A stretch of 64,000 bases of DNA from assembly GCF_000026545.1 (NCBI RefSeq), contig NC_011601.1. One strand, given 5' to 3'. The DNA comes from Escherichia coli O127:H6 str. E2348/69. Its GTDB lineage: Bacteria > Pseudomonadota > Gammaproteobacteria > Enterobacterales > Enterobacteriaceae. This document shows, piece after piece, positions 50,820-57,931 of this stretch (position 1 is its first letter; each line of letters begins with the position of its first letter). The position numbers were made by a program, and so were the translations under genes. A model generated the notes under the pieces. The model made no database searches. It was not told where the DNA came from and saw only the letters and a program-made list of their open reading frames with translations.

Positions 50820-50859
50820 TTTGCACCTCACAAAAGAGTGGCAAAGGACTTGAGAAGGA

Positions 50860-50950
50860 GCCTCAAATCCCTTCGCCGGCGTTATCCGGATCAGGTTCGA
50901 CGGGTATTTTCTCAGCGCACGCGGCTGCGTGGCACCCCGTTGAGAACGGC
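50860..50950 (-). ncRNA. TPP (THI-box) riboswitch in the thiBPQ leader
   Basis: minus-strand RNA reads ...GGGGUGCC...CUGAGAaaauACCCgucgaACCUGAUCCGGAUAACGCCGGCGAAGGGA, matching the conserved THI element. Confidence 0.85.
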
Positions 50951-50982
50951 GTTAGTGTAGTGATTTTGTTATCAACCAGCAA

Positions 50983-52638
50983 TCATGGATCCGGTGGTGC
51001 AAACCACGCTGATTTAAAATCGAACCAGCCGAGGGTGTTCATGCGCAGGCCGCGCATACTACGTTGCCCCTGAATGATCAGCCAGTGGTGGATAAGTGGC
51101 ACCATTGCTTTGCTGGCGACCAGTTGCTGGCACCAGTTCGCCAGGTTCATTTCGCCATTGCGCCAGCGGGCGGCGTCGGCTTGCCAGTCGATCGGAATAC
51201 AGTGTTGGAGCAGCGGCACCTCGCACAAGTGCGCGAACAGCGAAAAATCCAGCGGCAGCGTAAAGTTGGCGCTGTTAAGCCAGATATCGCTCTCGATCTC
51301 TCCTTCATGCCACTGATCGTAGCTGATCTCTTTGATTTTCAGCGTGACCTGGTGACTTGCCAGAATCTGCTGCATGATCCCGGCAATCACCCGATGTTCA
51401 ATATGATCCTGATAAAAGGTCAGGGTAAGGTTTTCCAACCCCGCGGGTTTTTCGCAATGTGTCGGGCGGGCATGGTGCCAACGGGGGAGCAGTCCATAAG
51501 CCGGGAACCACAGTTGCTGGTACTGTTCCTCAGCGAAATAGACCAGATTCGTCGGAGAAAGCACATAGCTTACCCAGTCTCTGACTTGCTGATTCGCCCC
51601 TCGATGGGTGCGGCTGTCGAACAGTAAATAGTAGCAACCTTCCTCCAGGCGGCTTTCAATCTCTTTTTCCTCGCCCTGTGGACCTTTTAGCATCAGCCCT
51701 CCGGCTGGCTCGTCGGCAATTTCCGGCAGAACCCAGACGTTAACTTCGTCGATTAATGCCCGGTAACCGAAGAAGTCATCGAATGCCTGAATTTTCAGTT
51801 GATTGCTGCTGTTGCGGATCACCGCATAAGGACCCGTTCCGATGGGATGGCTGGCAAAGTTACTGAGGGTTTCCCATTCGCGCGGCAGGATCATTGCCGG
51901 AACTTGCCCCAGCAGTAACGGCAACCAGCGGTCCGGTTGCGTGAGATGGATATCCAGTGTCCAGGGCGTCGGCGACACAATGTCAGCAATATGCGAATAG
52001 AGCGGAAGCGTATTGATTCGTTTTAAAGAGGCGATCACATCGTCCATTTCCAGTTCACGACCATGGTGAAAATGGACTCCTGGACGCAAAAAGAAACGCC
52101 AGTGAAGCGGTGATATTTGCTGCCAGTGGTGGGCGATGTCTGCTTCCAGTTCCCCATTTTCCTCATTTATGCGCGTTAGCGAACTGAAGATTTGCCGGGC
52201 GATATGGGTTTCAGAACGGCGCAATGCGCTGCCAGGTAGCAGATTACGCAACGGACGATAGTAGAGCACGCGCAGGATGTGCCGCCCCTGGCGGAAGCTG
52301 CGTCCCAGATGAGAAACCAACATTTGCCGCACAGCCGCTTTGTCGCCAACCAGTTGCACCAGTTGATCGATACGATCCTGCTCCAGCAGGTCCTCTGCTC
52401 GCTGTTGCTGAAGCGCCAGCCCGGTATAGAGGAATGTCAGACGCGAGCGTTTGCCGCGCCCGACTTCCGCTTCCCACGTCAGCCAGCCGCGATCCTGCAT
52501 GGTGTTGAGCAGGGTGCGCATATGACGACGCGAGCAGCTCAATAACGCTGCCAGTTCGTTGAGCGTCGTGTCCTGCGATTTACCCTCGCAGCATTGCCAC
52601 AGGCGGATGAACTGTTGTTGCAGACGAGCAGATGGCAT
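50983..52638 (-). CDS. sgrR: transcriptional regulator SgrR
   Basis: ORF track 50983..52659 trimmed to [15 protein letters not shown]... (551 aa). Confidence 0.93.
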
Positions 52639-52705
52639 AAAAGGGGAACTCCTGCGCAAAAGACAGCAATTTTATTTTCCCTATATTAAGTCAATAATTC
52701 CTAAC

Positions 52706-52932
52706 GATGAAGCAAGGAGGTGCCTCATGCGTCAGTTTTATCAGCACTATTTTACCGCGACAGCGAAGTTGTGCTGGTTGCGTTGGTTAAGCGTCCCACA
52801 ACGATTAACCATGCTTGAAGAACTGATGCAATGGGAGGGGAGTCATTCTGACTACTGATTTGCGGACATCATGTGTGACTGAGTATTGGTGTTAATCGCC
52901 ACGCCAGCAGTGATTATCTGCTGGCTTTTTTC
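52706..52932 (+). ncRNA. sgrS: small RNA SgrS
   Basis: divergent from sgrR; begins near gatgaagcaaggagg, carries the sgrT ORF, then the conserved gtgtgactgagtattggtgt pairing region and terminator ccagcag-tgattat-ctgctgg + cttttttc (52904-52932). Confidence 0.85.
52727..52858 (+). CDS. sgrT: SgrT small protein encoded within SgrS
   Basis: 43 aa ORF MRQFYQHYFTATAKLCWLRWLSVPQRLTMLEELMQWEGSHSDY with RBS aaggagg; nested in the 99 aa track ORF 52559..52858. Confidence 0.8.
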   Translation: MRQFYQHYFTATAKLCWLRWLSVPQRLTMLEELMQWEGSHSDY

Positions 52933-52965
52933 TTTTTGGCGATTGAGTGCCGGACGGTGTACAAA

Positions 52966-54982
<2,017 letters not shown>

Positions 54983-57684: not shown

Positions 57685-57722
57685 GGGCATAAAAAAACCC
57701 GCGCAATGGCGCGGGTTTTTTG
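57685..57722 (-). terminator. leu operon attenuator terminator
   Basis: GC-rich hairpin cccgcgc-aatg-gcgcggg flanked by A7 and T6 runs, between leuL and leuA. Confidence 0.8.
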
Positions 57723-57739
57723 TTTGACTGCGTGCTGGC

Positions 57740-57826
57740 TTAATGCTGGATGCCGCTCACTCGTCTACCGCGCAAAGAAGATGCGTTTAGTAGTAGTAGA
57801 CCGATAAAGCGAACGATGTGAGTCAT
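57740..57826 (-). CDS. leuL: leu operon leader peptide
   Basis: 28 aa [28 protein letters not shown] with four consecutive Leu (CUA) codons; last 28 codons of the track ORF 57740..57931. Confidence 0.85.
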
Positions 57827-57931
57827 TAAATCAGCTCCAGATGAATGCGATATGCTTTTAGAGTTACTGGATACAAAAACGGATGTCAACCCTGAAGCAA
57901 TAAAAACGTCACGCCATTGTGAGTTCGGCAT

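Follow-up and report, generated by a model that had tools for sequence, protein, structure and literature searches.

The setA-less sgrS–leuD junction of Escherichia coli E2348/69 and its place among Escherichia alleles

Organization of the sgrR–leuD region

The window, i.e., the whole 64,000-nucleotide stretch of DNA under analysis, belongs to E. coli E2348/69 (EPEC), to which a 741-bp junction query taken from it is 100% identical. The intact sgrR gene (50983 to 52638, minus strand; 551 amino acids) specifies the activator of sgrS transcription; it matches the NCBIfam SgrR equivalog NF010149 with 1125.9 bits and carries the same name in the E2348/69 annotation. It lies directly upstream of sgrS and is divergent from it. 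A consensus scan revealed a putative promoter (AAGACA-16-TATATT; 52660 to 52687, plus strand), with a spacing that fits the SgrS 5' end at 52706.

SgrS itself (52706 to 52932, plus strand) was recognized by the Rfam covariance model RF00534 over its full length (positions 1 to 232 of 232) with 221.8 bits, the gathering score being 37. All features that define this sRNA are present (divergent sgrR, embedded sgrT, 3' ptsG-pairing region, and terminal hairpin plus U-tract), and the sequence represents the setA-less ("CFT073/O157-type") allele. Its base-pairing (seed) region CATCATGTGTGACTGAGTATTGGTGT (52867 to 52892, plus strand) is identical to that of K-12 in pairwise alignment and unchanged in six of seven setA-less alleles, with a single substitution in that of IAI39 (ggtgCt). 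The embedded sgrT ORF (52727 to 52858, plus strand; 43 amino acids), also annotated in E2348/69, retains its ATG. The translated peptide ends in WEGSHSDY (52832 to 52858) as opposed to WDDRNSES in K-12, so that six of the last eight residues differ; this variant C terminus is common to all setA-less alleles examined. The ribosome-binding site region of sgrT (52715 to 52729) reads AGGAGGTGCCTCATG in the window and GGGGGTGCCCCATG in K-12, where it forms a stem-loop. This stem-loop, reported to sequester the sgrT ribosome-binding site in only a few strains (PMC2760817), is missing from the window, which reads AGGAGGUGCCUC. Translation of SgrT is therefore probably more efficient than in K-12.

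An intrinsic terminator closes SgrS (52903 to 52937, plus strand), consisting of an 8-bp stem (GCCAGCAG/CTGCTGGC) with a 7-nt loop followed by the T-tract TTTTTTCTTTTT. The stem is that of K-12 extended by one G-C pair, and the hairpin alone folds with −14.1 kcal/mol, compared to −10.6 kcal/mol for the 7-bp stem of K-12. Two σ70-like matches on the minus strand (52942 to 52913 and 52895 to 52868), which are consensus hits only, run antisense to the SgrS 3' region. Convergent to SgrS is leuD (52966 to 53571, minus strand; 201 amino acids ending in PAFMR before the stop), which scored 343.6 bits against TIGR00171 (cutoff, 116.25). Four further Rfam matches above the gathering score are those expected for this part of the E. 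coli chromosome: the ES003 sRNA (463 to 515), the REP-derived naRNA4 (29630 to 29709), the TPP riboswitch upstream of thiB in the sroA region (50850 to 50949), and the leucine operon leader (57691 to 57840).

The leuD TAG stop occupies 52966 to 52968, and the interval from the SgrS end at 52932 is thus 33 bp (52933 to 52965); as the terminator T-tract reaches 52937, the untranscribed spacer is closer to 28 bp. This spacer stands in place of the K-12 sgrS-setA spacer, setA, and the setA-leuD spacer. The equivalent interval in K-12 MG1655 amounts to 1254 bp (27 bp, the 1179 bp of setA, and 48 bp). In blastn, the alignment of K-12 and the window runs to the SgrS end and resumes just inside leuD, with approximately 1261 bp of K-12 replaced by approximately 40 bp. 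A tblastn search of the 64-kb window with K-12 SetA returned no match, the best E values (4.3 and 5.9) being noise, and the RefSeq annotation of the E2348/69 region lists sgrR, sgrT, and leuD, with no pseudogene in between. The coordinates thus confirm the claim of the earlier note that setA is absent and that the junction leaves no room for it; the 33-bp gap is a structural fact to which a chance test does not apply. The K-12 gene order assumed by the note (sgrR, sgrS-sgrT, setA, leuD) is the one seen in the K-12 sequence, and the cotranscription of setA with sgrS to which it refers is documented as terminator read-through (PMC9765468). An operon of the sgrS-setA type, with an MFS gene approximately 27 bp past the SgrS terminator and expressed by read-through, is not found in the window.

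The only other ORF at this site (52936 to 53202, plus strand; 88 amino acids) is antisense to leuD and had been dismissed as spurious. It has no NCBIfam family, is frameshifted to a stop after 12 codons in Escherichia sp. E1V33, E. whittamii, and E. albertii, and contains an internal stop in IAI39, all of which bears out that judgment. The spacer was also inspected for remnants of setA. Local alignment against the intervals of K-12 and 11 outgroups yielded nothing above the null from 300 shuffles, and a tiled scan of the spacer against 68 outgroup setA loci reached a maximum of 13.7, with a null of 13.4 ± 1.3 and 32% of the shuffles scoring at least as high as observed. Likenesses noticed by eye to the outgroup setA 3' end (CTGGCGATGACCGGGCGGGTGAAAGA) and to an arm of the outgroup spacer hairpin (TGCCGGATG) had no statistical support and were rejected.

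Taken together, the locus resembles its K-12 counterpart in the divergent intact sgrR, the same SgrS 5' end, sgrT, the identical base-pairing region, the presence of an intrinsic terminator, and the convergent leuD. It differs from it in the lack of setA, with 33 bp in place of 1254 bp, and in the 3' third of sgrS, i.e., in the SgrT C terminus, the terminator stem (8 versus 7 bp), and the T-tract (TTTTTTCTTTTT versus TTTTTTTT).

Distribution of the junction in E. coli and related genera

Absence of setA behind SgrS is by no means a peculiarity of E2348/69. Among 5426 complete E. coli genomes, the junction is uninterrupted in 2159 (approximately 40%) and split into two places in 3240, and the setA-less arrangement is found in thousands of RefSeq genomes. 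Reference strains without setA include E2348/69 (B2), IAI39 (F), 042 (D), and O157:H7 Sakai (E), all with the same spacing. The comparison of the junction across E. coli lineages, which the earlier note had proposed as a check, thus shows the setA-less state to be lineage-wide in phylogroups B2, D, E, and F. This state is already known and published, and it is an ordinary lineage-wide polymorphism. Horler and Vanderpool (2009), who analyzed SgrS from K-12, CFT073, and O157:H7, found 99% identity between the two pathogens and 88% between either of them and K-12, and drew gene synteny for each SgrS homolog with setA marked (PMC2760817). The window sgrS falls into this same allele class; only a few positions of sgrS and the spacer distinguish the window from Sakai, 042, and IAI39. 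Unlike Sakai, in which the sgrT start codon is ATT, as described in PMC2760817, the window keeps the ATG. In the study of Gonzalez-Alba et al. (2019; PMC6896753), setA figures among the genes "acquired" by the A/B1 sublineage; the window agrees with the polymorphism described there, in which setA is confined to A/B1, and belongs to the setA-less remainder.

The locus bears a second polymorphism. In IAI39, 042, and O157:H7 Sakai, the T3SS effector gene espY2 resides between the thiB riboswitch and sgrR (10289 to 10858 of the IAI39 locus, L083; 4759 to 5328 of the 042 locus, L084; 2673 to 3242 of the Sakai locus, L086). Neither K-12 nor the window, where 50950 to 50982 separates the TPP riboswitch from the sgrR 3' end, has a gene at this site. 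Presence or absence of espY2 does not track setA.

Bare absence of a gene is all that would suggest a recent strain-specific deletion, or an artefact of assembly or collapse, in E2348/69. Such an origin has practically no likelihood, being refuted by the recurrence of the same junction in 2159 complete genomes, in the references of four phylogroups, and in three other Escherichia species; the allele-specific divergence of the flanks described below would likewise be unexpected after a recent loss from a K-12-like ancestor. The earlier note had also conceived that setA might be present elsewhere in the genome with an sgrS-like leader. Nothing was found in support of a relocation of setA and its expression from another site, which is very improbable. 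K-12 setA is present at 95% identity or more in 3240 genomes (at 99% or more in 3226 of those), and this number equals that of the genomes with a split junction, which argues that setA has not moved to another place in the setA-less genomes. The other 2182 records display a match to the setB paralog only (approximately 73% identity, with 13% of the query aligned). This is also the case for S88 and the O157:H7 strains, and the setA-less genomes listed have one match, annotated as setB. SetA is absent from the window as well. These matching counts, together with setA-less strains such as S88 and O157:H7, suggest that setA is probably missing from the whole E2348/69 genome.

Synteny beyond E. coli was charted on SgrR loci taken from one genome per species, in which SetA and LeuD were then located; E. 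fergusonii, E. marmotae, and E. ruysiae are not among the loci compared. In all 76 non-Escherichia loci, sgrS is immediately followed by the gene for a SetA homolog (74 to 91% amino acid identity); these loci represent about 70 species of Enterobacteriaceae, including Citrobacter, Salmonella arizonae/diarizonae, Enterobacter, Klebsiella, Raoultella, Kluyvera, Leclercia, Lelliottia, Trabulsiella, Atlantibacter, and Buttiauxella. Because setA occupies the same site in every one of these loci, sgrR/sgrS/setA/leuD is the ancestral order. Within the genus, Escherichia sp. MOD1-EC7003 has setA, and Escherichia sp. E1V33, E. albertii, and E. whittamii lack it. The T-tract, spacer, and leuD end of these last three correspond, position by position in the alignment, to those of E. 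coli B2/D/E/F. The 33-bp spacer sequence is common to these E. coli phylogroups, and the spacer of the other three has 31 bp. The homologous junction pattern, i.e., TTTTTTCTTTTT plus GGCGATTGAG..CGGACGG.GTACAAA and the leuD stop, is found in the window. This alignment across the setA-less lineages argues for one old event rather than repeated deletions. Thus, the window very probably carries an old, single-origin setA-less allele, which is normal in E. coli B2/D/E/F and in several sister Escherichia species.

Two diverged alleles and the history of setA

Divergence between the setA-less and setA+ forms extends into the flanking sequences. The window sgrS is 86.7% identical to that of K-12, compared to 93.4, 93.8, and 95.6% for E1V33, E. 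albertii, and E. whittamii, respectively; the sgrS genes of K-12 and MOD1-EC7003, both setA+, share 98.7% identity. Sliding identity in 100-bp steps delimited a block of raised divergence from K-12 at 52783 to 53165 (84 to 91%), flanked by 95 to 100% identity over approximately 51483 to 52782 (sgrR and the sgrS 5' part) and by the same range in most 100-bp bins beyond 53165 (leuD and leuC). K-12 and MOD1-EC7003 differ by 0 to 3 mismatches per 100 bp over the sgrS 3' end and setA, versus 4 to 14 in most flanking bins. As judged from this drop in mismatches against the higher flanks, the setA+ cassette looks to have been exchanged between Escherichia lineages.

The 3' half of sgrR shows further divergence, with the window only 83 to 84% identical to K-12 in bins 51183 to 51282 and 51383 to 51482. 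In the former, identity of the window to MOD1-EC7003, E. albertii, and E. whittamii is approximately 95%; in the latter, it is low for these three as well (87 to 88%). K-12 sgrR appears to contain a separate divergent recombinant patch, covering at least bin 51183 to 51282. The C-terminal end of LeuD (52966 to 52974) reads FMR before the stop in the window and in the Citrobacter and Salmonella outgroups, and FMN in K-12 and MOD1-EC7003. Since the outgroups share FMR with the window, the setA+ Escherichia allele is derived at the leuD end.

These observations are best explained by a history in which a deletion early in Escherichia took setA with both of its spacers and left some 31 to 33 bp from the SgrS T-tract to the leuD stop. 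E2348/69 inherited this deletion allele, which the E. coli ancestor would have carried. The K-12-type setA+ allele of phylogroups A and B1 is a different one that has diverged deeply from it and that homologous recombination appears to have carried from one Escherichia lineage to another; A/B1 would in this way have re-imported a cassette of the ancestral type. We infer the deletion from outgroup synteny and not from sequence remnants, since the spacer holds no detectable setA scar. Re-import, rather than first-time gain, is most likely the origin of setA in E. coli; cassette exchange together with the very low setA diversity within E. coli makes it the simplest reading.

Alternatively, setA may never have been present in the E. 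coli ancestor, such that A/B1 gained a new accessory gene and the window retains the primitive state, as the acquisition stated in PMC6896753 would have it. In its favor, setA is missing from three sister species and from every basal E. coli phylogroup sampled, the low diversity of the gene (99% identity or more in 3226 genomes) fits a recent arrival, and the K-12 cassette barely differs from that of a lineage diverged by approximately 6%. Nonetheless, the 76 non-Escherichia loci hold setA at exactly this site, which was therefore occupied before Escherichia, making the setA-less state derived. Furthermore, K-12 SetA is 74 to 91% identical to its outgroup homologs, the same range as for the vertically inherited SgrR (74 to 88%) and LeuD (85 to 93%). 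Such a first-time gain is thus possible but rather unlikely. Within E. coli alone it coincides with the deletion and re-import scenario, since both have setA imported into A/B1; it departs from that scenario in the deeper history only. In contrast to the published acquisition, outgroup synteny shows a site that was ancestrally occupied, so that the setA-less state reflects deletion and the A/B1 state either retention or re-import.

The deletion and re-import scenario has to accommodate one further observation. Citrobacter sgrS is somewhat closer to setA-less sgrS (78 to 81% identity) than to K-12 sgrS (75 to 77%). This affinity would not be expected had K-12 simply kept the ancestral allele by vertical descent, and it makes any direction and source proposed for the setA+ cassette tentative.

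Output of the SgrS/SgrT module without setA

In K-12, setA is transcribed with sgrS from the SgrR-activated promoter through the leaky SgrS terminator, and deletion of this terminator raises setA-lacZ expression only 1.6- to 1.8-fold (PMC9765468). SetA helps recovery in some conditions of glucose-phosphate stress, in which its substrate is unclear (PMC4021124). The window preserves sgrR, the promoter-like site, the sgrT ORF with its ATG, the K-12-identical seed, and the terminator. With these elements intact and setA missing, locus anatomy suggests that the module should still repress its targets via SgrS and inhibit PtsG via SgrT, with no pump output. Upon glucose-phosphate stress, the SgrR-activated transcript would end at a somewhat stronger terminator and yield SgrS and SgrT only, and read-through would produce no pump mRNA, running instead antisense into the leuD 3' end. 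The uncoupling of the SgrS/SgrT module from SetA anticipated by the earlier note is thus supported by the lack of setA at the junction. SetB is still encoded elsewhere in the genome, and our analysis found no evidence of its control by SgrR.

Convergence of leuD on SgrS also draws attention to the 3' end of the leucine operon mRNA. The terminator scan detected no minus-strand terminator for leuD; folding identified the reversed SgrS terminator as the sole minus-strand hairpin downstream of the gene, and it is followed by GUGGCGAUUAAC and no U-tract. Since leuABCD has no recognizable terminator of its own and the reversed hairpin is devoid of a U-tract, the leuABCD mRNA 3' end of setA-less lineages could conceivably extend antisense over the SgrS seed and terminator and couple the operon to SgrS levels, although we consider this a long shot. 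The RIL-seq paper on EPEC contains no mention of leuD or setA, and its only references to SgrS are in the discussion and the reference list. Were such an extension real, coupling of the leucine operon to SgrS would act through transcriptional interference or an antisense "sponge" and could help explain the persistence of the deletion allele across species.

The present analysis refines the published polymorphism by reading the setA-less state as a deletion common to several Escherichia lineages and the A/B1 state as retention or re-import and not a first-time gain. The A/B1 "acquisition" would then be better described as retention in, or re-import into, a genus with a widespread old deletion allele. 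Work on the sgrS-setA operon and on terminator read-through was done in K-12, and caution is advisable in view of the approximately 40% of sequenced E. coli that have no setA behind SgrS. Major pathogen lineages are among these, with EPEC E2348/69, O157:H7, and S88 and other B2 strains as examples. In setA-less strains, the output of the glucose-phosphate stress response would consist of SgrS and SgrT only, and the fate of terminator read-through would differ.
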